From Escherichia phage vB_EcoM-569R9, in sequence record ON470601: DNA of 32,497 nt, one strand, 5' to 3'. The position numbers were made by a program, and so were the translations under genes. A model generated the notes under the pieces. It worked only from the letters and a program-made list of their open reading frames with translations. It was not told the origin of the DNA and searched no databases. Of this stretch, positions 7,317 through 32,085 are shown piece by piece (within the stretch, counting starts at the first letter, position 1; every line of letters begins with the position of its first letter).

Positions 7317-7388
7317 ACATCTGATTTAATTTGTTGCATAATAGTAAAATTGCTGTTTATCTGCATGTGTTAACTATTGATAATTATG

Positions 7389-7416
7389 TTGCTAATAATG
7401 TGTGCAAATTTATACT
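7389..7416 (+). promoter_or_regulatory. Putative sigma70 promoter for the hotspot cargo gene: -35 TTGCTA (7389-7394), 16-bp spacer, -10 TATACT (7411-7416)
   Basis: Hexamers read from sequence; followed by RBS AGGTG and ATG at 7433. Confidence 0.3.
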
Positions 7417-7432
7417 GAAAAAGGTGAAAACG

Positions 7433-9265
7433 ATGAATGATATCTTTGTTCTTACAAGGGAAGAGCTTGAAACACTAGATTATAGTGTTTTTATGCATAT
7501 ACCAGTTACATTTCATGCACATAAAATAAAAAAATATCTGGATGGGATTGCTGAATCATCAGAAAACCCCAAAGAGAAAAAATTAGCATCTCTTTTTGGT
7601 ATGCTATATAGTTTCAATTTGCAAGTTGTTAACAACACTCCATCATTTGAACCCCAAATGATTTGGGGTAATAAAAGATCAATATTGCCTGAAGATTTTG
7701 ATGAGCAGGTGAATGACTGTCTTTTATATGTTTCTCAAAAAATAACCAATCCATTTTTGTTATCAAGAATATATGATGTTGTTTGGTGTAATAATCGGAA
7801 AAATAAAGACGTGGCAATTAAAGCAATTGATTCCTATGCTGAAATGCTAAATATAGCAATTGAAAAGCTAATAATAAAAAACGAAAGCATGGATGAAAGT
7901 GATTTAAATTGCTTTATTTTTGCTCGTGATTATATTGCTAGGGCTTTGCACATTAATAAAATGGTCTACCCTAGAAAATCAGAAGGAAACATGGCGATTA
8001 AAAATGCCATTCATTCTCTTTATAGTATTCAAAATGAAAGATTAATCTTTGAAGGTTTCAATAATTTGACTTGGTTTATGGTGCGTGATTTTGATGGGTA
8101 TAATCTGCAGTATGCGGAAAATGCTGAGAAGATGGCTGAGCAGCATAAAGATAAAAAATATTATGATGCTGTAAAATCACTTTATATGACAAGTGCAGTT
8201 ATTTATGAAAAAAATGGTGAGTATGAACGTGCCAAGAGATGTAAACTGGCATCTGCAAATATTACTATTAAAGTTGCAACAGATCGACCTGATAATATGG
8301 GTAAGATCTCTTGGTTAAGAACAGCTATCTCTGAATTAAGACAGTACGGTGGTGATAGCCAACAGATAGAAGATTTAAAGGAACAACTTGCTAATTTGAG
8401 AGAAGAAGTAAGGAGTGAATATGTCACTTTAAGCCATTCTATTGATATTAGTGACTTGGTTGCTGAAAGTGAAAAAAAACTGACGGGGCGTTCTTTGCCC
8501 GATATATTCAAAGTTTTAATGAGTGAAACACCGATTGAAAATATTGAAAGCATGAGGGAACAAGTTTTAAAATTATCAGAAAAAAGTTTATTCTCTAGTT
8601 TTGTTGGAACAGAAATTAATGATGAGAGTGGGCGTAAGATATATACAATCCCGCCGTTGGATAATAAAAAAGATATGAGTGATGATGTTGTTATTGATCA
8701 ATATCTAAGAAATTTCGAGATTACTCATAAGATTTTTGTAAACGGTGTCTTTGAACCTGCTCGCTATGTACTTTCTCAAGAACATGGCTTGACGTTGTCA
8801 ACATTCGTTAAATTGGTTACAACTAGTCCAATTGTCAAGCCGGAGTTTAGGGAGATTTTTAATTTGGGCTTTTACAAATTATGGCAGGGAGATTACATCA
8901 GTGCAGCTTATCTTTTAATACCACAAATGGAAGGTATGGTTCGTTATTATTATGAGCTTAGCGGAAAGGATGCTACTAGATATTTGGATAAGGGATTAGA
9001 GGAGTCAACAAGTATTTCTCAGCTTCTAGATAAATGCAGAGATGATTTGGAAAGTATCTTTTCTAAAAATCTTGTTTTGACTATCGATGTTCTTTTTAAC
9101 AGAAAGAGTGGGGCAACCTTAAGACATAAATTAGCACATGGTAATTTATATACTAATGCTTGTTACGATGAAACAACGACATATGCATGCATCCTGATTT
9201 TCTTTCTGTGTGCTTATCCTCTCCTACCATATTTTGATACTGTTTTTGAACAGGGCTCTGTTTGA
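7433..9265 (+). CDS. Orphan ~610-aa cargo protein in the P2 tin/old hotspot; candidate anti-phage defence (abortive infection) protein with C-terminal HEPN-like R-x4-H-G motif (LRHKLAHG)
   Basis: Single long ORF (frame open from 7331; RBS-supported start 7433); AT-rich relative to the backbone; located exactly between A and cos; no Walker A motif so not Old-like; not Tin size. Confidence 0.6.
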   Translation: MNDIFVLTREELETLDYSVFMHIPVTFHAHKIKKYLDGIAESSENPKEKKLASLFGMLYSFNLQVVNNTPSFEPQMIWGNKRSILPEDFDEQVNDCLLYVSQKITNPFLLSRIYDVVWCNNRKNKDVAIKAIDSYAEMLNIAIEKLIIKNESMDESDLNCFIFARDYIARALHINKMVYPRKSEGNMAIKNAIHSLYSIQNERLIFEGFNNLTWFMVRDFDGYNLQYAENAEKMAEQHKDKKYYDAVKSLYMTSAVIYEKNGEYERAKRCKLASANITIKVATDRPDNMGKISWLRTAISELRQYGGDSQQIEDLKEQLANLREEVRSEYVTLSHSIDISDLVAESEKKLTGRSLPDIFKVLMSETPIENIESMREQVLKLSEKSLFSSFVGTEINDESGRKIYTIPPLDNKKDMSDDVVIDQYLRNFEITHKIFVNGVFEPARYVLSQEHGLTLSTFVKLVTTSPIVKPEFREIFNLGFYKLWQGDYISAAYLLIPQMEGMVRYYYELSGKDATRYLDKGLEESTSISQLLDKCRDDLESIFSKNLVLTIDVLFNRKSGATLRHKLAHGNLYTNACYDETTTYACILIFFLCAYPLLPYFDTVFEQGSV

Positions 9266-9604: not shown

Positions 9605-10639
9605 TCAGCCGTTGTCAGTGTCCAGTGAGTAGTTTTTAAAGCGGATGACCTCCTGACCGAGCCAGCCGTTTATCTCGCGGATCCTGTCCTGTAGCGGGAT
9701 AAGCTCATTGCGGACAAAGACCTTTGCCACTTTCTCAATATCACCCAGCGACCCGACGTTCTCCGGCTTGCCGCCCATCAACTGAAAGGGGATGCGGTGC
9801 GCGTCCAGCAGGTCAGCGGCGCTGGCTTTTTTGATATTAAAAAAATCGTCCTTCGTTGCCACTTCACTGAGCGGGATAATTTTAATGCCGTCGGCTTTCC
9901 CCTGCGGAGCATAGAGAAACAGATTTTTAAAGTTGTTGCGGCCTTTCGACTTGACCATGTTTTCGCGAAGCATTTCGATATCGTTGCGATCCTGCACGGC
10001 ATCGGTGACGTACATGATATATCCGGCATGAGCGCCATTTTCGTAATACTTGCGGCGGAACAGCGTGGCCGACTCATTCAGCCAGGCAGAATTAAGGGCG
10101 CTGAGATATTCCGGCAGGCCGTACAGCTCCTGATTAATATCCGGCTCCAGCAGGTGAAACACGGAACCGGGCGCGAAGGCTGTCGGCTCGTTGAAGGACG
10201 GCACCCACCAGTAAACATCCTCTTCCACACCACGGCGGGTATATTTTGCCGGTGAGGTTTCCAGTCTGATGACCTTACCGGTGGTGCTGTAACGCTTTTC
10301 CAGAAACGCATTACCGAACACCAGAAAATCCAGCACAAAGCGGCTGAAATCCTGCTGGGAAAGCCACGGGTGCGGGATAAACGTTGAAGCCAGAATATTA
10401 CGTTTGACGTAAATCGGTGAGCTGTGATGCACGGCAGCACGCAGACTTTTTGCCAGACCGGTAAAGCTGACCGGTGGCTCATACCATCTGCCGTTACTGA
10501 TGCATTCGACGTAATCCAGAATGTCACGGCGGTCGAGTACCGGCACTGGCTCACCAAAGGTGAATGCNNNNNNNNNNNNNNNCGCTGGCGGTCATTTTTT
10601 TTGCCGCAGGTTGCGGTGTTTTCCCTTTTTTCTTGCTCA
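9605..10639 (-). CDS. Q: Portal protein Q (interrupted by a 14-nt N-run at 10568-10581)
   Basis: 313-aa ORF plus N-terminal exon MSKKKGKTPQPAAKKMTAS upstream of the gap; P2 Q-like; position next to terminase. Confidence 0.88.
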
Positions 10640-13498: not shown

Positions 13499-14592
13499 AT
13501 GCGCCAGGAAACCCGCTTTAAATTTAATGCCTACCTGTCCCGTGTTGCCGAACTGAACGGCATCGACGCCGGTGATGNNNNNNNNNNNNNNNNNNNNNNN
13601 CGAAAAAATTCACCGTTGAACCGTCGGTCACTCAGACCCTGATGAACACCATGCAGGAGTCCTCTGATTTTCTGACCAGCATCAACATTGTGCCGGTCAG
13701 CGAAATGAAAGGGGAAAAAATTGGTATTGGTGTCACCGGCTCCATCGCCAGCACCACCGACACCGCCGGTGGCACCGAGCGTCAGCCGAAGGACTTCTCG
13801 AAGCTGGCGTCAAACAAGTACGAATGCGACCAGATTAACTTCGATTTTTATATCCGCTACAAAACGCTGGACCTGTGGGCGCGTTATCAGGATTTCCAGC
13901 TCCGTATCCGTAACGCCATTATCAAACGCCAGTCCCTTGATTTCATCATGGCCGGTTTTAACGGCGTGAAGCGTGCCGAAACCTCTGACCGCAGCAGTAA
14001 TCCGATGCTGCAGGATGTGGCGGTCGGCTGGCTGCAGAAATACCGCAATGAAGCACCGGCGCGCGTGATGAGCAAGGTCACTGACGAGGAAGGGCACACC
14101 ACCTCTGAGGTCATCCGCGTGGGTAAGGGCGGTGATTATGCCAGCCTCGATGCACTGGTGATGGATGCGACCAACAACCTGATTGAGCCGTGGTATCAGG
14201 AAGACCCTGACCTTGTGGTGATTGTGGGGCGTCAGCTACTGGCGGACAAGTATTTCCCCATCGTCAACAGGGAGCAGGATAACAGCGAAATGCTGGCTGC
14301 TGACGTGATCATCAGCCAGAAACGCATCGGTAACCTGCCAGCGGTACGCGTCCCGTACTTCCCGGCGGATGCGATGCTCATCACGAAGCTGGAAAACCTG
14401 TCCATCTACTACATGGATGACAGCCATCGCCGCGTGATTGTGGAAAACCCGAAACTCGACCGCGTGGAGAACTACGAGTCAATGAACATTGATTACGTGG
14501 TGGAAGACTACGCCGCCGGTTGTCTGGTGGAAAAAATCAAGGTCGGTGATTTCTCCACACCGGCTAAGGCGACCGCAGAGCCGGGAGCGTAA
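13499..14592 (+). CDS. N: Major capsid protein N (interrupted by a 23-nt N-run at 13578-13600)
   Basis: Starts MRQETRFKFNAYLSRVAELNGIDAGD before the gap, continues ...FTVEPSVTQTLMNTMQESSDF...; P2 N-like. Confidence 0.9.
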
Positions 14593-14595
14593 CCG

Positions 14596-15337
14596 ATGAC
14601 GAGTCCCGCACAGCGCCACATGATGCGGGTCTCGGCAGCGATGACCGCGCAGCGGGAAGCCGCCCCGCTGCGACATGCAACTGTCTATGAGCAGATGCTG
14701 GTCAAGCTGGCCGCAGACCAGCGCACACTGAAAGCGATTTATTCAAAAGAGCTTAAGGCCGCGAAAAAGCGCGAACTGCTGCCGTTCTGGTTGCCGTGGG
14801 TGAACGGTGTGCTGGAGCAGGGCAAAGGTGCACAGGATGACATTCTGATGACGGTCATGCTGTGGCGTCTGGATACCGGCGATATTGCCGGTGCGCTGGA
14901 GATTGCCCGTTATGCCCTGAAGTACGGTCTGACCATGCCGGGTAAACACCGCCGCACCCCGCCGTACATGTTCACCGAGGAGGTCGCACTCGCGGCCATG
15001 CGCGCTCACGCTGCCGGTGAATCTGTGGATATCCGCCTGCTGACGGAGACCCTTGAACNNNNNNNNNNNTGACATGCCTGATGAAGTGCGCGCAAAGCTG
15101 CACAAAATCACCGGTCTGTTTCTGCGTGACGCTGGTGATGCCGCCGGTGCGCTGGCTCACCTGCAACGTGCGACACAGCTCGACTGTCAGGCAGGCGTCA
15201 AAAAAGAGATTGAACGACTGGAGCGGGAGCTGAAACCGAAGCCGGAGCCGCAGCCAAAAGCGGTCACCCGCGCCCCGCGTAAGACCCGGAGCGTGACACC
15301 GGCAAAACGTGGACGCCCGAAAAAGAAAGCCAGTTAA
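14596..15337 (+). CDS. M: Terminase small/endonuclease subunit M (interrupted by a 10-nt N-run at 15060-15069)
   Basis: Two ORF segments either side of the gap; basic C-terminal tail (RKTRSVTPAKRGRPKKKAS); canonical position. Confidence 0.85.
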
Positions 15338-16434: not shown

Positions 16435-16949
16435 TGCCGGTAATTAACACGCATCAGAATATCGCCGCCTTTCTCGACATGCTGGCCGTGTCCGAAGGGA
16501 CGGCGAATCATCCGCTGACGAAAAACCGGGGCTATGACGTGATAGTCACCGGACTGGACGGAAAGCCGGAAATTTTCACCGACTACAGTGACCACCCGTT
16601 CGCGCATGGCCGACCGGCGAAGGTGTTTAACCGTCGCGGTGAAAAATCCACGGCCTCCGGTCGCTATCAGCAGCTTTACCTGTTCTGGCCGCACTACCGC
16701 AAACAGCTTGCCCTGCCGGATTTCAGTCCGTTGTCACAGGACAGGCTCGCCATTCAGTTGATCCGCGAACGCGGTGCACTGGATNNNNNNNNNNNNNNNN
16801 NNNNNATCCGGGCGGGACGCATTGAGCGCGCCATTTCACGCTGTCGCAATATCTGGGCGTCCCTGCCGGGTGCCGGTTACGGTCAGCGTGAGCATTCACT
16901 GGAAAAACTGGTCACCGTCTGGCGTACCGCCGGCGGCGTACCGGCTTAA
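16434..16949 (+). CDS. K: Endolysin K (lysozyme; interrupted by a 21-nt N-run at 16785-16805)
   Basis: P2 K-like ORF following the holin. Confidence 0.85.
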   Translation: MPVINTHQNIAAFLDMLAVSEGTANHPLTKNRGYDVIVTGLDGKPEIFTDYSDHPFAHGRPAKVFNRRGEKSTASGRYQQLYLFWPHYRKQLALPDFSPLSQDRLAIQLIRERGALDXXXXXXXIRAGRIERAISRCRNIWASLPGAGYGQREHSLEKLVTVWRTAGGVPA

Positions 16950-18888: not shown

Positions 18889-19524
18889 ATGAACACTCTC
18901 GCAAATATTCAGGAACTCGCGCGCGCACTGCGCAACATGATTCGTACCGGCATTATCGTCGAAACCGACCTTAACGCCGGTCGCTGCCGTGTGCAGACCG
19001 GCGGCATGTGTACCGACTGGCTGCAGTGGCTGACCCATCGCGCCGGACGTTCGCGCACATGGTGGGCACCTTCCGTGGGGGAACAGGTGCTGATTCTGGC
19101 CGTGGGCGGTGAACTCGACACGGCGTTCGTTCTGCCGGGGATTTATTCCGGCGATAACCCCTCGCCGTCTGTGTCGGCGGATGCCCTGCATATCCGTTTC
19201 CCTGACGGGGCGGTGATTGAGTATGAACCCGAAACCAGTGCACTCACGGTAAGCGGAATTAAAACGGCCAGCGTGACGGCTTCTGATTCTGTTACCGCCA
19301 CGGTGCCTGTGGTCATGGTGAAAGCATCAACCCGCATCACCCTGGACACACCGGAGGTGGTCTGCACCAACAGGCTGATTACCGGCACGCTGGAAGTGCA
19401 GAAGGGCGGGACGATGCGCGGCAACATTGAACACACCGGCGGTGAACTCTCATCAAACGGTAAGGTACTGCATACCCATAAACACCCCGGCGACAGCGGC
19501 GGCACAACCGGGAGTCCTCTATGA
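18889..19524 (+). CDS. V: Baseplate central spike protein V
   Basis: 211-aa ORF; P2 V-like; first gene of the V-W-J-I-H-G operon. Confidence 0.85.
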   Translation: MNTLANIQELARALRNMIRTGIIVETDLNAGRCRVQTGGMCTDWLQWLTHRAGRSRTWWAPSVGEQVLILAVGGELDTAFVLPGIYSGDNPSPSVSADALHIRFPDGAVIEYEPETSALTVSGIKTASVTASDSVTATVPVVMVKASTRITLDTPEVVCTNRLITGTLEVQKGGTMRGNIEHTGGELSSNGKVLHTHKHPGDSGGTTGSPL

Positions 19525-19868
19525 CAGCGCGTTATCTCGGAATGAATCGCAGTGATGGCCTGACTGTCACTGACCTTGAGCATATCAGCCAGAGTATCGG
19601 CGATATCCTGCGCACACCGGTCGGCTCACGGGTGATGCGTCGTGATTACGGCTCGTTGCTGGCGTCAATGATTGACCAGCCGCAGACCCCGGCGCTTGAG
19701 TTGCAGATTAAGGTCGCCTGTTACATGTCCGTGCTGAAATGGGAACCCCGCGTCACCCTGTCATCCGTCACCACGGCGCGCAGTTTTGACGGGCGAATGA
19801 CGGTCACGTTAACCGGTCAGCACAACGACACCGGCCAGCCACTTTCGTTAACCATCCCTGTGAGTTGA
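19521..19868 (+). CDS. W: Baseplate wedge protein W (gp25-like)
   Basis: 115-aa ORF; GPW/gp25 family-like; position. Confidence 0.85.
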   Translation: MTARYLGMNRSDGLTVTDLEHISQSIGDILRTPVGSRVMRRDYGSLLASMIDQPQTPALELQIKVACYMSVLKWEPRVTLSSVTTARSFDGRMTVTLTGQHNDTGQPLSLTIPVS

Positions 19869-19872
19869 AACC

Positions 19873-20781
19873 ATGCCGATTATCGACCTGAACCAGCTAC
19901 CCGCACCGGATGTGGTCGAGGAGCTGGACTTTGAAACCATTCTCGCTGAACGCAAGGCGACACTGATTTCCCTTTACCCGGAAGACCAGCAGGAGGCGGT
20001 CGCCCGTACCCTGACGCTGGAATCCGAGCCTCTCGTCAAACTGCTGGAGGAAAATGCTTATCGTGAGCTTATCTGGCGTCAGCGTGTGAATGAGGCCGCA
20101 CGGGCGGTAATGCTGGCCTGTGCTGCCGGTAATGACCTTGATGTGATTGGTGCCAATTACAACACCACGCGCCTGATTATCACCCCGGCAGATGATTCGA
20201 CTATCCCGCCGACACCGGCAGTGATGGAATCTGACACCGATTATCGTCTGCGTATTCAGCAGGCGTTTGAAGGTTTAAGCGTCGCCGGGTCGGTGGGTGC
20301 CTATCAGTATCATGGTCGCAGTGCCGACGGGCGTGTCGCAGATATCTCTGTCACCAGCCCTTCTCCGGCCTGCGTCACCATCTCCGTGCTGTCTCGCGAA
20401 AATAACGGTGTTGCATCCGAAGACCTGCTGGCGGCGGTGCGTAACGCCCTTAATGGCGAGGACGTCAGGCCGGTGGCCGACCGCGTGACCGTGCAGTCTG
20501 CCGCCATCGTTGAATACCAGATAAACGCCACGCTTTACCTTTACCCTGGTCCCGAAAGCGAACCCATCCGCGCTGCTGCCGTGAAAAAACTGGAAGCGTA
20601 CATCACAGCACAGCACCGGCTGGGGCGCGACATCCGTCTGTCTGCCATTTATGCTGCTTTGCATGTGGAAGGCGTGCAGCGTGTCGAACTGACTGCACCG
20701 CTGGCCGACATCGTGCTCAACAGTACGCAGGCGTCTTTCTGTACCGAATACCGCGTCGTGACCGGAGGCTCGGATGAGTGA
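19873..20781 (+). CDS. J: Baseplate protein J
   Basis: 302-aa ORF; position and size match P2 J. Confidence 0.85.
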   Translation: MPIIDLNQLPAPDVVEELDFETILAERKATLISLYPEDQQEAVARTLTLESEPLVKLLEENAYRELIWRQRVNEAARAVMLACAAGNDLDVIGANYNTTRLIITPADDSTIPPTPAVMESDTDYRLRIQQAFEGLSVAGSVGAYQYHGRSADGRVADISVTSPSPACVTISVLSRENNGVASEDLLAAVRNALNGEDVRPVADRVTVQSAAIVEYQINATLYLYPGPESEPIRAAAVKKLEAYITAQHRLGRDIRLSAIYAALHVEGVQRVELTAPLADIVLNSTQASFCTEYRVVTGGSDE

Positions 20782-21304
20782 TTCGCGACTGCTGCCGACC
20801 GGCTCATCACCGCTTGAAGTTGCTGCCGCAAAAGCCTGTGCGGAAATTGAAAAAACGCCGGTCAGTATTCGTGAACTGTGGAACCCGGACACCTGCCCGG
20901 CAAATCTGCTGCCGTGGCTGGCGTGGGCGTTTTCGGTCGACAGGTGGGATGAAAAGTGGCCGGAAGCGACCAAGCGCGCCGTTATTCGCGATGCCTATTT
21001 CATCCACTGTCATAAAGGCACTATAGGCGCAATCCGGCGTGTGGTGGAGCCGCTCGGCTATCTCATTAACGTAAAGGAATGGTGGGAGACAAACGACCCG
21101 CCCGGAACCTTTCGCCTTGATATCGGTGTGCTGGAAAGCGGCATCACGGAGGAGATGTATCTGGAAATGGAACGGCTGATTGCCGATGCCAAACCCGCAA
21201 GTCGCCACCTTATCGGCCTGAACATTATCCAGGACATTCCCGGCTATCTGTATACAGGCGGTGTGGTCTGTGATGGTGATGTTATTACTGTTTATCCCGG
21301 ATAA
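20774..21304 (+). CDS. I: Baseplate/tail fibre attachment protein I
   Basis: 176-aa ORF; position and size match P2 I. Confidence 0.85.
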   Translation: MSDSRLLPTGSSPLEVAAAKACAEIEKTPVSIRELWNPDTCPANLLPWLAWAFSVDRWDEKWPEATKRAVIRDAYFIHCHKGTIGAIRRVVEPLGYLINVKEWWETNDPPGTFRLDIGVLESGITEEMYLEMERLIADAKPASRHLIGLNIIQDIPGYLYTGGVVCDGDVITVYPG

Positions 21305-21314
21305 GTGAGAAACA

Positions 21315-24050
21315 ATGAGCACGAAATTTAAAACCGTTATCACTACTGCCGGAGCCGCGAAGCTGGCAGCCGCCACTGTCCCCGGCGGGAAAAAAGTAAA
21401 CCTGTCTGCAATGGCCGTGGGTGACGGTAATGGCAAATTGCCGGTGCCGGATGCCGGTCAGACGAAGCTGGTGCATGAGGTCTGGCGTCATGCCCTGAAT
21501 AAAGTCAGCGTGGATAATAAGAATAAAAACTATATCGTGGCTGAACTGGTTGTTCCGCCAGAAGTGGGCGGCTTCTGGATGCGTGAGCTTGGTCTGTATG
21601 ACGATGCCGGAACACTGATTGCGGTATCCAACATGGCAGAAAGCTATAAGCCAGAACTGGCTGAAGGCTCCGGACGTGCGCAGACCTGCCGCATGGTTAT
21701 TATTCTCAGCAACGTGGCGTCCGTTGAGCTGAGTATTGATGCCAGCACAGTGATGGCGACGCAGGATTACGTCGATGACAAAATCGCAGAGCATGAGCAG
21801 TCCCGCCGCCATCCTGACGCCACGCTGACAGAAAAAGGTTTTACTCAGTTAAGCAGTGCAACAAACAGCACCAGTGAGTCATTGGCAGCAACGCCAAAAG
21901 CGGTCAAGGCAGCAAATGACAACGCAAATTCACGTCTGGCGAAAAATCAGAATGGTGCAGATATCCAGGATAAATCAGCTTTTCTGGACAATGTTGGCGT
22001 TACCAGCCTGACGTTTATGAAAAACAATGGCGAAATGCCGGTTGATGCTGATCTGAATACGTTTGGTCCTGTTAAGGCTTATTCAGGTATCTGGTCTAAA
22101 GCTACATCCACTAACGCGACGGCTGCTAAAAATTTCCCTGAAGACGGTGCAGTCGGTGTACTGGAGGTATTCAATGGCGGTAATTTTTCAGGAATGCAGC
22201 GTTATACCACCAGAACAGGCAATGTTTATATGCGCAACCTTTCTGGCACATGGAATGGTTCAGACGGTCCGTGGAGTTACTGGCGTCAGGTTCAGTCTGC
22301 AACACGCCCCCTGAGCACAACCATTGACCTGAACACGCTCGGAGGCGCAGAGCATCTTGGTTTATGGCGAAACAGTAGTGGCTCAATCGCTTCATTTGAC
22401 CGCAACTATCCGGAAGAAGGAAGTTATGGTCAGGGACTCCTTGAAGTTCTTGAAGGTGGTGGTTACTCGCGAACGCAGCGTTACACGACCCGCCGTGGAA
22501 ATGTTTATGTTCGCTGTCTTTCGGCCTCGTGGGATGCAGAGAACCCACAGTGGGAGCCGTGGTCAAGAGTGGGCTACCAGTCAGAAAGCCGTTATTACGA
22601 CGGTGATTTGAATGATGTAACCTCACCAGGTATTTACAGCGTTACAGGTAAAGCGACCAATGGTCCAATACTGGACGGAAACGGCGTGACAGTCCTCGGT
22701 ATTCTGGAAGTGTTGAGGCGCTTTGATGGTGTTAACGTATGGCAGCGTTATACAACTGCCGGAACAGGTACAACCCTTAAAGGTCGCACGTTTGAGCGCG
22801 TTTTTACCGGCAGCTCATGGAGCGAATGGCGGGAAGTTTACACATCTTATTCACTTCCCCTGAATCTGGGTATCGGTGGCGCAGTAGCAAAACTCACCAG
22901 CCTGGACTGGCAGACATACGATTTTGTGCCGGGCAGTCTGATAACCGTTCGGCTGGATAACATGACCAATATTCCCGACGGTATGGACTGGGGCGTCATT
23001 GATGGCAACCTGATAAACATCTCAGTCGGTCCGAGTGATGATTCTGGTTCGGGACGCTCAATGCATGTATGGCGCAGCACTGTAAGTAAAGCCAACTACC
23101 GCTTTTTTATGGTGCGTATTTCAGGAAATCCGGGAAGCCGCACGATTACAGCAAGACGAGTACCAATCATTGACGAAGCCCAGACATGGGGCGCGAAACA
23201 GACATTCAGTGCTGGCCTTTCTGGTGAACTGTCCGGCAATGCGGCGACAGCAACAAAGCTGAAAACAGCCCGTAAAATTAATAACGTTTCGTTTGATGGA
23301 ACATCAGATATTAACCTGACGCCGAAAAATATTGGTGCATTTGCTTCAGGAAAAACAGGAGACACCGTTGCGAATGATAAAGCCGTTGGATGGAACTGGA
23401 GTAGCGGAGCCTATAACGCAACTATTGGTGGGGCATCAACGTTAATTCTTCATTTTAATATCGGTGAAGGAAGTTGCCCCGCCGCCCAGTTCCGCGTTAA
23501 TTATAAGAACGGCGGTATTTTTTATCGTTCTGCTCGTGACGGTTACGGATTCGAGGCTGACTGGTCTGAGTTTTATACCACAACGCGAAAACCTACAGCG
23601 GGAGATGTCGGTGCACTGCCGTTATCTGGTGGTCAATTGAATGGTGCTCTGGGTATAGGAACATCCAGTGCTCTTGGCGGTAATTCGATTGTTTTGGGTG
23701 ATAATGACACGGGCTTTAAACAAAATGGTGATGGTAATCTGGATGTTTATGCTAATAGCGTCCATGTTATGCGCTTTGTCTCGGGAAGTATTCAAAGTAA
23801 TAAAACCATAAATATTACGGGGCGTGTTAATCCCTCGGATTACGGTAACTTTGATTCCCGCTATGTGAGAGATGTCAGACTTGGCACACGTGTTGTTCAG
23901 ACCATGCAAAAAGGCGTGATGTATGAAAAATCAGGCCATGTAATCACGGGGCTTGGTATTGTCGGTGAAGTCGATGGTGATGATCCAGCAGTATTCAGAC
24001 CAATACAAAAATACATCAATGGCACATGGTATAACGTTGCGCAGGTGTAA
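21315..24050 (+). CDS. H: Tail fibre protein H, mosaic: P2 H-like N-terminal virion-attachment region fused to a long divergent distal region with a triplicated ~50-aa repeat
   Basis: 911-aa ORF (P2 H is markedly shorter); conserved N-terminus MSTKFKTVITTAGAAKLAAATV...; three repeat units around nt 22120-22290, 22400-22570 and 22660-22840. Confidence 0.85.
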   Translation: MSTKFKTVITTAGAAKLAAATVPGGKKVNLSAMAVGDGNGKLPVPDAGQTKLVHEVWRHALNKVSVDNKNKNYIVAELVVPPEVGGFWMRELGLYDDAGTLIAVSNMAESYKPELAEGSGRAQTCRMVIILSNVASVELSIDASTVMATQDYVDDKIAEHEQSRRHPDATLTEKGFTQLSSATNSTSESLAATPKAVKAANDNANSRLAKNQNGADIQDKSAFLDNVGVTSLTFMKNNGEMPVDADLNTFGPVKAYSGIWSKATSTNATAAKNFPEDGAVGVLEVFNGGNFSGMQRYTTRTGNVYMRNLSGTWNGSDGPWSYWRQVQSATRPLSTTIDLNTLGGAEHLGLWRNSSGSIASFDRNYPEEGSYGQGLLEVLEGGGYSRTQRYTTRRGNVYVRCLSASWDAENPQWEPWSRVGYQSESRYYDGDLNDVTSPGIYSVTGKATNGPILDGNGVTVLGILEVLRRFDGVNVWQRYTTAGTGTTLKGRTFERVFTGSSWSEWREVYTSYSLPLNLGIGGAVAKLTSLDWQTYDFVPGSLITVRLDNMTNIPDGMDWGVIDGNLINISVGPSDDSGSGRSMHVWRSTVSKANYRFFMVRISGNPGSRTITARRVPIIDEAQTWGAKQTFSAGLSGELSGNAATATKLKTARKINNVSFDGTSDINLTPKNIGAFASGKTGDTVANDKAVGWNWSSGAYNATIGGASTLILHFNIGEGSCPAAQFRVNYKNGGIFYRSARDGYGFEADWSEFYTTTRKPTAGDVGALPLSGGQLNGALGIGTSSALGGNSIVLGDNDTGFKQNGDGNLDVYANSVHVMRFVSGSIQSNKTINITGRVNPSDYGNFDSRYVRDVRLGTRVVQTMQKGVMYEKSGHVITGLGIVGEVDGDDPAVFRPIQKYINGTWYNVAQV

Positions 24051-24053
24051 ATT

Positions 24054-24581
24054 ATGCAGCATTTAAAAAACATTAAGTCAGGTAATCCAAAAACAAAAGA
24101 ACAATATCAGCTAACAAAGAATTTTGATGTTATCTGGTTATGGTCCGAAGACGGAAAAAACTGGTATGAGGAAGTAAGTAATTTTCAGGAAGACACGATA
24201 AAGATTGTTTACGATGAAAATAATATTATTGTCGGCATCACCAGAGATGCTTCAACGCTCAACCCTGAAGGTTTCAGCGTTGTCGAGGTTCCTGATATTA
24301 CCGCCAACCGACGTGCTGATGACTCAGGGAAATGGATGTTTAAGGATGGTGCCGTGATTAAGCGGATTTATACGGCAGACGAACAGCAACAACAGGCAGA
24401 ATCACAAAAGGCCGCGTTACTTTCCGAAGCGGAAAGCGTTATTCAGCCACTGGAGCGCGCTGTCAGGCTGAACATGGCAACAGATGAGGAGCGTAGCCGA
24501 CTGGAAGCATGGGAACGCTACAGTGTTCTGGTCAGCCGTGTGGATCCTGCAAATCCTGAATGGCCGGAAATGCCGCAATAA
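24054..24581 (+). CDS. G: Tail fibre assembly chaperone G (Tfa family)
   Basis: 175-aa ORF immediately after H; C-terminal EWPEMP-type ending typical of tail fibre assembly proteins. Confidence 0.8.
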
Positions 24582-24970: not shown

Positions 24971-25522
24971 ATGGACTGGAAAGATCTTGCATCAACCGCT
25001 GTGTATACAGGTATGACTGATGAAAATGAAAACATATGGGGACGTGTTGATGGGGTTGACGTTGCCTTCATAGGTGCCTTTCTTACTGCGCACTTGAGCC
25101 TTGAAAAGTATATTACTGATTATCTTGGATTAAGATATCCTTCGTTAGCTTGGGGTGATGCAAAACTCACATTTTCACAAAAAATAGCTTTAATACAACA
25201 TGAGCCTGCAAAACCCCCTTATGATGAAATATATTTAAGAATAAAAGACTTTAACAGCATAAGAAATAAAATNNNNNNNNNNNNNNNNNNNNNNNNNNNN
25301 NNNNNNNTGAATTATCAGATTACGGATAAAGAAAAAAGTAAGTTTGTGGACTTCTACATGAAGATTACTAAAGCCAGTAAAACTAAACCAAATATTGATA
25401 TTGATAACATGGCGGATTTGTTGGATTTTTTCGTATCGATGACAAAATCCTATTTTGCTAGTGCTATTTCTTATTATCACTATAATAAAAAGGTTGCAGG
25501 TAAAAGTAATAAAATTGATTAA
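24971..25522 (+). CDS. Orphan ~180-aa cargo protein in the P2 Z/fun hotspot (interrupted by a 34-nt N-run at 25274-25307); function unknown, candidate exclusion/defence gene
   Basis: ORF with RBS AAAGGA before ATG; AT-rich; between G and FI where P2 carries Z/fun. Confidence 0.5.
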   Translation: MDWKDLASTAVYTGMTDENENIWGRVDGVDVAFIGAFLTAHLSLEKYITDYLGLRYPSLAWGDAKLTFSQKIALIQHEPAKPPYDEIYLRIKDFNSIRNKXXXXXXXXXXXXXNYQITDKEKSKFVDFYMKITKASKTKPNIDIDNMADLLDFFVSMTKSYFASAISYYHYNKKVAGKSNKID

Positions 25523-25697
25523 TAAAACTGGACTTAGGGATAATTAATATATAGACGTTCTATCATTTTTAGAGTGTGCGGCAGCTCCATACATTCATGC
25601 GGATGTCAGCACCTCGCTCAAAGCAGACAGTCAGATTTGATAGCGTTTGGACTATGTAAATAGTCAGTTGGAAAATGAGTGAGTACAAATCAGGACA

Positions 25698-25724
25698 GGC
25701 GGGCGAATTGCCCGCCTTTTCTTT
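25698..25724 (+). terminator. Rho-independent terminator downstream of the Z/fun-position cargo gene
   Basis: Hairpin GGCGGGC-gaatt-GCCCGCC followed by TTTTCTTT. Confidence 0.7.
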
Positions 25725-30960: not shown

Positions 30961-32085
30961 TGCTGGATGCGCTGACATTTGATGCAGGCAGTACGCTGAC
31001 GCCGGATTACATGCTGATGCTCGACAGCAGGGATATTACCGGCAATATCAGCGACCGTCTGATGAGTATGACCCTGACGGATAACCGGGGCTTTGAGGCT
31101 GACCAGCTTGATATTGAACTGAACGATGCCGACGGGCAGGTCGGGCTGCCGGTTCGTGGCGCTGTCCTGACGGTTTATATCGGCTGGAAAGGTTTTGCCC
31201 TGGTATGCAAAGGGAAATTTACCATTGATGAGGTTGAACACCGGGGAGCGCCGGATGTGGTCACCATCCGCGCCCGGAGTGCGGATTTTCGCGGGACGCT
31301 CAATTCCCGCCGTGAAGGCTCCTGGCATGACACCACGCTTGGTGNNNNNNNNNNCCTCCCGTAACAGGCTGGAAGCCAGTGTCGCTCCGTCACTGGCAGG
31401 AATTAAAATCCCGCACATCGACCAGTCGCAGGAGTCTGATGCGAAATTTCTGACCCGTCTTGCAGAACGCAACGGCGGTGAGGTGTCGGTAAAAATGGGA
31501 AAACTGCTGTTTCTCAAAGCGGGGCAGGGGGNNNNNNNNNNCCGCAGCGACGGCGACCGTCATCATTTTGCGATTGCTGACCGTGGAGCCTACACAGGCG
31601 TAACGGCAAAGTGGTTACACACCAAAGACCCGAAGCCGCAAAAGCAGAAGGTAAAACTGAAACGCAAAAAGAAAGAGAAACACCTGCGCGCACTGGAGCA
31701 CCCGAAAGCGAAACCGGTCACGCAGAAGAAAGCGCCAAAAGTACCGGAAGCGCGCGAAGGTGAATACATGGCCGGTGAGGCTGACAATGTTTTTGCCCTG
31801 ACCACGGTATATGCCACGAAAGCGCAGGCCATGCGCGCCGCTCAGGCGAAGTGGGATAAACTGCAACGGGGCGTTGCGGAGTTCTCCATCAGCCTGGCTA
31901 CCGGTCGGGCAGATATTTACACGGAAACACCGGTCAAAGTGTCAGGCTTTAAGCGCGTCATAGACGAGCAGGACTGGACAATCACTAAGGTGACACATTT
32001 TCTGAATAATAGCGGCTTCACGACGTCCTTGGAGCTTGAGGTCAGGCTTTCTGATGTGGAGTACGAAACAGAAGATGATGAGTGA
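30960..32085 (+). CDS. D: Tail protein D (late control gene D family; interrupted by two 10-nt N-runs at 31345-31354 and 31532-31541)
   Basis: Three ORF segments spanning the gaps; canonical position before ogr. Confidence 0.85.

Follow-up and report, generated by a model that had tools for sequence, protein, structure and literature searches.

What does an unusually long tail fibre tell us about the surfaces that a P2-like phage recognizes? The question is raised by gene H in the window, the 32,497-nucleotide stretch of Escherichia phage vB_EcoM-569R9 (ON470601) analysed here, the product of which is 911 aa in length as against 669 aa in P2, a difference of 242 aa. A first-pass annotation of the letters had read H as a mosaic fibre with an internal triplicated domain and a swapped receptor-binding region, and the neighbouring G as its matching assembly chaperone. 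We consider it very likely that H and G are the tail-fibre gene and Tfa-type chaperone of an intact P2-like (Peduovirus) E. coli prophage, specifying a modular trimeric fibre with recognition at its tip and an old cassette of knobs along its shaft.

Layout of the locus and the composition of H

The late-operon gene order V-W-J-I-H-G (18889..24581) is that of the P2 annotation, including the placement of the Tfa gene after H, and the flanks of the fibre region on both sides are 92-97% identical to P2 at the nucleotide level. G starts 3 nt past the stop of H in the list of open reading frames. The G+C content is 0.41-0.53 over H aa 208-911 and 0.45 in G versus 0.577 in V-W-J-I and 0.566 in FI; thus, both the low G+C relative to the backbone and the excess length over P2 H had been correctly noted. 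The coordinates of the genes and of the modules discussed below are collected in Table 1.

Table 1. Genes, modules and knob units of the fibre locus, with positions in the window
Feature	Position (nt)	Strand	Evidence or remark
Gene H, tail fibre protein, 911 aa	21315..24050, stop codon included	+	ORF; Pfam PF12571 and PF03406
H aa 1-207, P2-type N-terminal baseplate-attachment part	21315..21935	+	Phage_tail_fib at aa 1-151 (E 3.3e-57); Phage_fiber_2 repeat at aa 170-211
H aa 226-688, block collinear with T-even gp37	21990..23378	+	Three knobs and aa 526-640
Knob unit 1, H aa ~245-337, starts DLNTF at aa 246	22047..22325	+	
Knob unit 2, H aa 338-430, starts DLNTL	22326..22604	+	Smith-Waterman, HMMs; 44% identical to unit 1
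Knob unit 3, H aa 431-525, starts DLNDV	22605..22889	+	Smith-Waterman, HMMs; most divergent and most variable unit
H aa 675-767, domain common with phage Mu G(-) fibre S'	23337..23615	+	85% identity to Mu S'
H aa 770-835, P2 H/gp37-needle-like segment, GDNDTGF motif	23622..23819	+	
H aa 836-911, terminal domain	23820..24047	+	~78% identity to P2 H 592-669
Gene G, tail fibre assembly protein (Tfa family), 175 aa	24054..24581	+	ORF; Caudo_TAP, phrog_136

The N-terminus of H is P2-like, as had been claimed: aa 1-207 are 83.6% identical to P2 H 1-207 and belong to the PF12571 family. At the DNA level, the homology to P2 (92%) runs up to nt 21920, where it stops, and returns at nt 23844 (87%) to span the last 68 codons of H and the whole of G. 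Since the N-terminus, the end of H and G all match P2, the part foreign to P2 is the shaft encoded by nt 21921-23843 (H aa ~203-843). H and P2 H are accordingly not collinear over their full length, with the central ~640 aa being devoid of DNA-level homology to P2. Hence, the proposed swap is real with respect to P2, but it affects the middle of the fibre rather than its receptor-binding end.

Within and beyond this foreign part, the matches of the individual modules to P2 H, gp37 and Mu S' sustain the view of H as a mosaic. The block at aa 226-688 aligns with T6 gp37 aa 105-562 at 53.5% identity over 465 aa and with many T-even gp37 proteins at ~60%; the collinearity with the T-even versions (e.g., T6 and RB14) takes in all three knob units. 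In contrast to H with its P2 baseplate, P2/Mu-type tip and Tfa chaperone, gp37 attaches via the gp36 joint, ends in another tip and uses the chaperones gp38/gp57A. The domain at aa 675-767 corresponds to residues 321-417 of PDB 8ju3 (domain E 6e-49), with Pfam gp37_C matching at aa 679-754, whereas the needle-like segment at aa 770-835 aligns with P2 H 472-526 and with residues 21-92 of S16 gp37 (PDB 6f45). P2 H carries an insert of ~56 aa between this segment and the terminal domain that is absent from the present H. The likeness to the Mu pairs S/U and S'/U' (PDB 5YVQ, 8JU3) extends from the S' domain to the last ~75 aa of H and to G; however, unlike Mu, the present phage has no invertible G segment, and the S'-like domain and S-like end occur in one H protein, with the needle segment (~77 aa) between them.

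The knob units and the relatives of the fibre

The three tandem units predicted for H are borne out, though a comparison of H against itself by BLASTP gave no off-diagonal match. This is because the repeats have diverged too far, and Smith-Waterman alignment against shuffled sequences and HMMs were therefore needed to support them. With 500 shuffles, the alignments gave z = 28 for units 1 and 2, 6.9 for units 1 and 3, and 4.0 for units 2 and 3, the pairwise identities being 44%, 27% and 24%, with unit 3 at 24-27% to the other two. An HMM built from unit-1 sequences only recovers unit 2 (E 3e-24) and unit 3 (E 2e-4), and one built from all units finds exactly three matches in H (aa 246-337, 338-429 and 431-520), with none in the rest of H and none in P2 H, which thus lacks gp37-type knobs by this measure. 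A fourth knob, sought at aa 526-640 with the knob HMM and with the single-unit HMMs, was not detected. The named motifs are also in place, G.LEV at aa 281/374/462 (nt 22155, 22434, 22698) and QRYTT at aa 295/388/477, within ~40 nt of the unit starts given earlier (22120, 22400, 22660). The period is, however, ~93 aa; the ~50 aa of the first-pass annotation cover the conserved core only.

In monomer structure predictions, the three units model as the knob fold known from R-type pyocin fibres, with an antiparallel five- or six-stranded beta-sheet and wrapping loops, as in Knob1 and Knob2 of the R2 fibre. A phmmer search of H against PDB sequences returned no pyocin fibre match and Pfam recognized no domain within H aa 212-678. 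NCBI labels fragments of the H protein as 'pyocin knob domain-containing protein'; NCBIfam has 0 matches for H, G or a 183-aa ORF, and the name presumably derives from another domain model. In contrast to the R1/R2 pyocin fibres (PDB 6CL5/6CL6/6CU2; Buth et al. 2018), which have two knobs and a lectin-like foot, H has three knobs and a C-terminal domain of the Mu/P2 type.

The DNA of H and G recurs at 100% nucleotide identity in 12 complete E. coli genomes, E. coli JJ2434 being one carrier of the identical pair, and infectious phages (P24B2, vB_YpM_50 and L-413C) carry H proteins that are 82-95% identical, the Peduovirus P24B2 version being at 95% and that of L-413C at 82%. The fibres of L-413C, P24B2, vB_YpM_22/50 and GMG73 share a length class of 909-913 aa and the same module order. 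As relayed in PMC7460101, Garcia et al. (2008) described L-413C H as a hybrid of four regions, in which the N-terminal 207 aa and the C-terminal end are P2-like. The present fibre type is thus already known, from the L-413C hybrid of 2008 and from identical copies in E. coli; it is real but ordinary. L-413C is itself a plague-diagnostic phage. Relative to its H, aa 1-240 and aa 631-911 of the present protein are 97-100% identical, whereas the two proteins carry different alleles of the knob cassette (aa 241-630), with 30-87% identity per 30-aa bin and saturated synonymous divergence.

These comparisons bear upon two readings of the locus. Three adjacent units with a common motif, in a protein so much longer than P2 H, could be taken as a recent, lineage-specific expansion that lengthened the fibre in this prophage. 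We reject this as almost certainly wrong: the units share only 24-44% identity, Tandem Repeats Finder detects no tandem repeat in the DNA, and the three units recur in unchanged order in T6 gp37 and L-413C H, each being nearer to its positional counterpart than to its neighbours. By these sequence comparisons, the triplication is ancient, came along with the cassette and is not peculiar to the present phage. It is also highly improbable that H is a decayed or non-functional chimera of a defective prophage, as its mosaicism, its patchy G+C and the short masked runs of N elsewhere in the window might suggest, given that the 911-codon ORF is uninterrupted and coupled to G, that identical copies persist in the 12 complete genomes, that plaque-forming phages carry close relatives, and that dN/dS is well below 1 throughout H.

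The tip, its chaperone and host range

The final 76 aa of H (aa 836-911), previously regarded as a distinct C-terminal tip, are ~78% identical to the end of P2 H, 74% to P88 H 689-764 and 54% to the C-terminus of Mu S. Within them, aa 863-893 (nt 23901-23993) align with HR2, the experimentally mapped host-range determinant of the P2-like phage P88 (PMC5285337), and aa 861-900 are variable among relatives. The P2 identity and the HR2-aligned stretch indicate that the receptor-binding end of H is a diverged P2 homologue and not a foreign domain, so that the earlier claim is only partly right. Fibre tips are interdigitated trimers and require multimer prediction; an AlphaFold2 monomer of H aa 520-911 had a pLDDT of 48.7 and was unusable as a fold, and the architecture of the tip is therefore read from homology only.

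G matches Caudo_TAP (PF02413, E 1.1e-36, aa 40-175) and phrog_136 (E 2e-82), placing it among the Tfa-domain proteins, with the PHROG matches falling into two parts, aa 1-93 and aa 101-175. It is 95% identical to P2 G, 99% to L-413C G (96-99% across the fibre type), 92% to Mu U and 57% to Mu U'. In a set of 80 IMG/VR loci, at least eight tip types occur in combination with the knob cassette, and each goes with one to three chaperone types of its own that are seldom shared with other tip types. When only loci of the present tip type are considered, changes in the final ~65 aa of H go along with changes in the first 95 aa of G, and among relatives these N-terminal 95 aa vary with the fibre end while the C-terminal part is generally more conserved. 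G is encoded directly after the fibre gene and matches the C-terminus of its product in this co-variation; it is therefore supported as the cognate assembly chaperone, in line with its domain match and the original proposal. P2 G and Mu U are required for fibre folding and trimerisation. In one study, however, co-expression of L-413C gpG brought no gain in the yield or solubility of GpH, according to an unpublished remark (PMC7460101), and we accordingly infer the need for G from P2 and Mu. Mu Tfa attaches to the distal fibre through its N-terminal domain and stays on the virion, according to North (2019) as cited in PMC9608196.

As for the expectation that the host range differs from that of P2, this is plausible in degree but not in kind, since L-413C, with a near-identical tip, uses the P2 receptor. 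On Y. pestis, L-413C and P2 vir1 share an LPS-core receptor with a critical terminal GlcNAc, though their titres are 5e11 and 2e7 PFU/ml, respectively (PMC3182234), and the L-413C GpH binds Y. pestis cells (PMC7460101). The present phage shares with P2 the operon position of the fibre genes and the homology of the H ends and G.

A set of 19 unique H proteins that have this tip in common shows only two variable zones. The knobs make up one of them (76-83% mean pairwise identity), with most of the remainder at 95-100%; unit 3 is the least conserved at 76%. Their loop (non-strand) residues vary more than their strand residues (0.777 vs 0.833, p = 0.009). The differences between knobs have a dN/dS of 0.12-0.15 with saturated dS, and the ratio is well below 1 in every region of H; these values lead us to reject positive selection as the source of the variability and point instead to an exchange of alleles.

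It might nevertheless be argued that the knob cassette, rather than the tip, is the main determinant of host range at the strain level, with each knob acting as a lectin-like secondary site and allele exchange retargeting the phage. Consistent with this are the concentration of variability in the knobs and their loops, the strongly different knobs of L-413C and the present H despite tips that are 97-100% identical, and the parallel in R pyocins, where the most diverse regions are Knob2 and the C-terminal foot, both proposed binders (PMC6116203). Yet old alleles exchanged under purifying selection need no adaptive cause, the knob family is without a known ligand site, and the sole mapped host-range determinant in a P2-like H is the terminal domain (PMC5285337); we hence view this reading as unlikely. 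We would be similarly doubtful that the three knobs form a second, independently exchangeable specificity module, with old alleles shuffled among P2-like prophages and, more distantly, shared with T-even gp37. If they did, the choice of knob allele would adjust the range of LPS or O-antigen surfaces open to the fibre, and the Y. pestis-efficient L-413C and the identical-tip E. coli prophage versions would differ through their knobs.

A modular fibre and its implications

Returning to the reading that we favor, recognition by the tip of an intact modular fibre, we advance the following plausible mechanism. By analogy with the binding of L-413C GpH and with the infectious phages that carry similar H proteins, H would form a trimeric fibre that mediates adsorption and is built from interchangeable modules: (i) a P2-type N-terminus (aa 1-207) for insertion into the baseplate; (ii) the gp37-like shaft cassette (aa ~226-688), opening with the three ~93-aa knobs; (iii) the domain shared with Mu S' (aa 675-767); (iv) a short needle-like segment (aa 770-835); (v) the P2/Mu-S-type terminal domain (aa 836-911). 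The variable N-terminal half of G probably binds aa 836-911, the putative docking site, whereas its conserved C-terminal helical half might drive trimerisation starting from the fibre C-terminus; the mature tip would, as in the reports on Mu, probably keep G. Recognition of the LPS core is likely to lie with the tip, HR2-equivalent stretch included. The knobs might lengthen and stiffen the fibre and may add putative secondary sugar contacts, with the cassette probably being exchanged among phages as one unit.

While of limited importance in itself, the locus offers a clean worked example of tail-fibre modularity, in which the baseplate adaptor, the knob shaft cassette and the tip-plus-chaperone unit each have a separate recombination history. 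In practical terms, this matters for host-range prediction and for fibre engineering (e.g., retargeted pyocins and Y. pestis phage diagnostics), where fibre length and the presence of repeats are by themselves uninformative. Attention should go first to the final ~76 aa of H along with the N-terminal half of G, and possibly then to the knob cassette.

Locus organization and mosaic composition of H

The window comprises an entire P2-like prophage whose gene order agrees with the V-W-J-I-H-G late operon of the P2 annotation, with DNA on both sides of the tail-fibre gene H and the assembly-chaperone gene G showing 92–97% identity to P2. The H protein is 242 aa longer than its P2 counterpart (669 aa) and is composed of segments with distinct affinities (see table), of which aa 226–688 display ~60% identity to many T-even gp37 proteins.

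Coordinates and affinities of the features considered here
Feature	Nucleotides	Strand	Length	Remarks
V, W, J, I	18889..21304			Upstream of H
H	21315..24050	+	911 codons	Tail fibre
G	24054..24581		175 codons	Start 3 nt past H stop
H aa 1–207	21315–21935			Nearest P2 H, 83.6%; PF12571 + Phage_fiber_2 repeat
H aa 226–688	21990–23378			T6 gp37 aa 105–562, collinear, 53.5% over 465 aa
H aa 675–767	23337–23615			Mu G(-) fibre S', 85%; PDB 8ju3
H aa 770–835	23622–23819			P2 H 472–526 and S16 gp37 needle (PDB 6f45)
H aa 836–911	23820–24047			P2 H end ~78%, P88 H 74%, Mu S 54%
ORF	7331..9265	+	644 aa	G+C 0.31–0.35
ORF	24971..25522	+	183 aa	G+C about 0.31
Terminator-like hairpin	25697..25717	+		9-bp stem, 7 G-C pairs, then T run

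DNA homology to P2 ends at nt 21920, returns weakly at 23669–23758 (81%) and runs again from nt 23844 through the rest of H, the whole of G and 95 nt further (87%). Thus, the segment foreign to P2 is nt ~21921–23843, with the extreme tip excluded. The first-pass annotation, made from sequence alone, had proposed a P2-like N-terminus, a distal part of lower G+C than the backbone, and a swapped region ending in a distinct tip. The first two are borne out, with G+C at 0.41–0.53 over the foreign stretch and G versus about 0.57 in the flanking structural genes; the third holds for the foreign segment but not for the terminal domain, which remains close to that of P2 H. Given a pLDDT of 48.7 for the monomer model of aa 520–911, the architecture proposed for the tip is based on sequence homology.

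Two low-G+C ORFs occupy positions that in P2 hold tin/old and fun(Z). The 644-aa ORF, lying between gene A (replication) and gene Q (portal) at the tin/old position, matches the PADLOC candidate PDC-S39 (E 8.5e-85), Pfam DUF7380 and, weakly, DUF4209, and is probably an anti-phage cargo gene. The 183-aa ORF, between G and FI (the fun(Z) position, where L-413C, a plague-diagnostic Yersinia phage, and the Peduovirus P24B2 have other small ORFs), has phrog_5483, a function-unknown family, as its sole match, with none in Pfam, NCBIfam or PADLOC. The strong hairpin downstream of it, immediately upstream of FI, probably marks the end of the V-operon or cargo-gene transcript. A masked N run (25273–25307) breaks this ORF; it is one of seven short runs (also 10568–10582, 13578–13600, 15059–15069, 16785–16805, 31345–31354, 31532–31541), several within structural genes, which look like masking rather than biology.

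The knob repeats: fold and origin

The tandem repeats reported in the first-pass annotation are real: pairwise Smith-Waterman comparisons against shuffled controls gave z = 28 (units 1/2), 6.9 (1/3) and 4.0 (2/3); an HMM built from relatives' unit-1 sequences only recovered both other units, unit 2 with E 3e-24 and unit 3 with E 2e-4, and reciprocal single-unit searches also succeeded. An all-unit HMM found exactly three matches in H (aa 246–337, 338–429, 431–520) and none in H aa 526–911, P2 H or Mu S/S'. The three copies carry the named motifs (G.LEV at aa 281/374/462; QRYTT at aa 295/388/477), but their period is ~93 aa, the ~50 aa originally claimed being the conserved core.

An AlphaFold2 model of aa 235–530 (22-sequence alignment, mean pLDDT 77) comprises three beta-rich domains. 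The structures compared with it were the Acinetobacter phage AS12 tailspike (6eu4, 11.3), the R2 pyocin fibre (6cu2, 9.7; 6cl6, 9.0), the phi11 receptor-binding protein (5efv, 8.4), T4 gp34 (5nxh, 7.3) and phage K gp144 (5m9f, 6.7). Buth et al. (PMC6116203) list four of these proteins, namely the pyocin fibre, phi11 gp45, phage K gp144 and T4 gp34, among those with the knob fold of the R-pyocin fibre, and fragments of the same H protein are named 'pyocin knob domain-containing protein' by NCBI. Since H has no sequence-level match to pyocin fibre chains among PDB sequences, the modeled units are assigned to the pyocin-type knob domains by fold.

A triplication in this phage is ruled out by the divergence of the units (44%, 27% and 24% identity), the lack of any DNA-level repeat by Tandem Repeats Finder, and the occurrence of these three units, in unchanged order, in L-413C H and T6 gp37 according to the all-unit HMM; hence, the triplication is ancient and arrived with the cassette, i.e., the shaft block containing all three knobs. 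As to variability, 19 unique H proteins that share the window's tip type are 95–100% conserved over most of their length, with two variable zones, the knobs (mean pairwise identity 76–83%) and aa 861–900 (64–66%), a pattern resembling that of R pyocins, where diversity is greatest in Knob2 and the C-terminal foot (Buth et al., PMC6116203). Knob differences show saturated dS (0.55 to >1.7, against 0.01–0.16 in the flanks) and dN/dS of 0.12–0.15, which rule out positive selection on point mutations; therefore, knob variability reflects the swapping of old alleles that are under purifying selection.

Tip–chaperone pairing and host specificity

G belongs to the Caudo_TAP/Tfa proteins (Pfam E 1e-36) and shares 95% identity with P2 G, 99% with L-413C G, 92% with Mu U and 57% with Mu U'. 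Across 80 IMG/VR loci encoding the same knob cassette, the H proteins fall into at least eight types by their tips, and the chaperones downstream of them into at least eight as well. A given tip type goes with between one and three chaperone types of its own, few of which recur with another tip type. Within the window's tip type, the last ~65 aa of H come in two variants, each found exclusively with one variant of G's N-terminal 95 aa; the rest of G, towards its C-terminus, is generally more conserved. This co-variation supports the earlier identification of G as the cognate chaperone and fits the Mu model of North 2019, as relayed in PMC9608196, in which Tfa attaches to the distal fibre by its variable N-terminal domain, drives trimerisation through its conserved C-terminal helices, and remains on the virion. 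The functional recombination unit is the H end plus G.

The tips joined to the cassette at these loci, at least eight of them unrelated, include a tail-collar/HxH-repeat type with chaperones of 192 or 205 aa and a Mu S'-type end with U'-like chaperones; some cassette-bearing proteins exceed 1200 aa and have no P2 N-terminus.

In the P2-like phage P88, replacement of HR2 (H aa 716–746) altered host range; single changes had an effect at positions 730 and 744 (PMC5285337). The exact alignment partner of HR2 here is aa 863–893, where specificity probably resides. The first-pass annotation held that host range likely differs from that of P2. Over aa 631–911, L-413C H is 97–100% identical to the window's H; L-413C GpH binds Y. 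pestis cells (PMC7460101), on which L-413C and P2 vir1 share a dependence on one LPS-core structure, in which terminal GlcNAc is critical, and reach titres of 5e11 and 2e7 PFU/ml, respectively (PMC3182234). Given this near-identical tip, shared receptor and higher titre, a plating efficiency or strain range unlike P2's is plausible, whereas nothing points to a different receptor class.

Prevalence and place in tail-fibre evolution

The identical 3267-nt H+G segment occurs in 12 complete E. coli genomes, annotated as a tail-collar fibre domain protein and a tail fibre assembly protein; most of it is present in 170 of 5426 genomes, and in 27 phage records its coverage is 80% or higher. The four-part hybrid nature of the L-413C version was described in 2008, as cited in PMC7460101. 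H+G thus lies within known tail-fibre modularity and is no departure from it: tidy as they are, the exchange of knob-cassette alleles and the co-variation of tip with chaperone at fine scale were to be expected.
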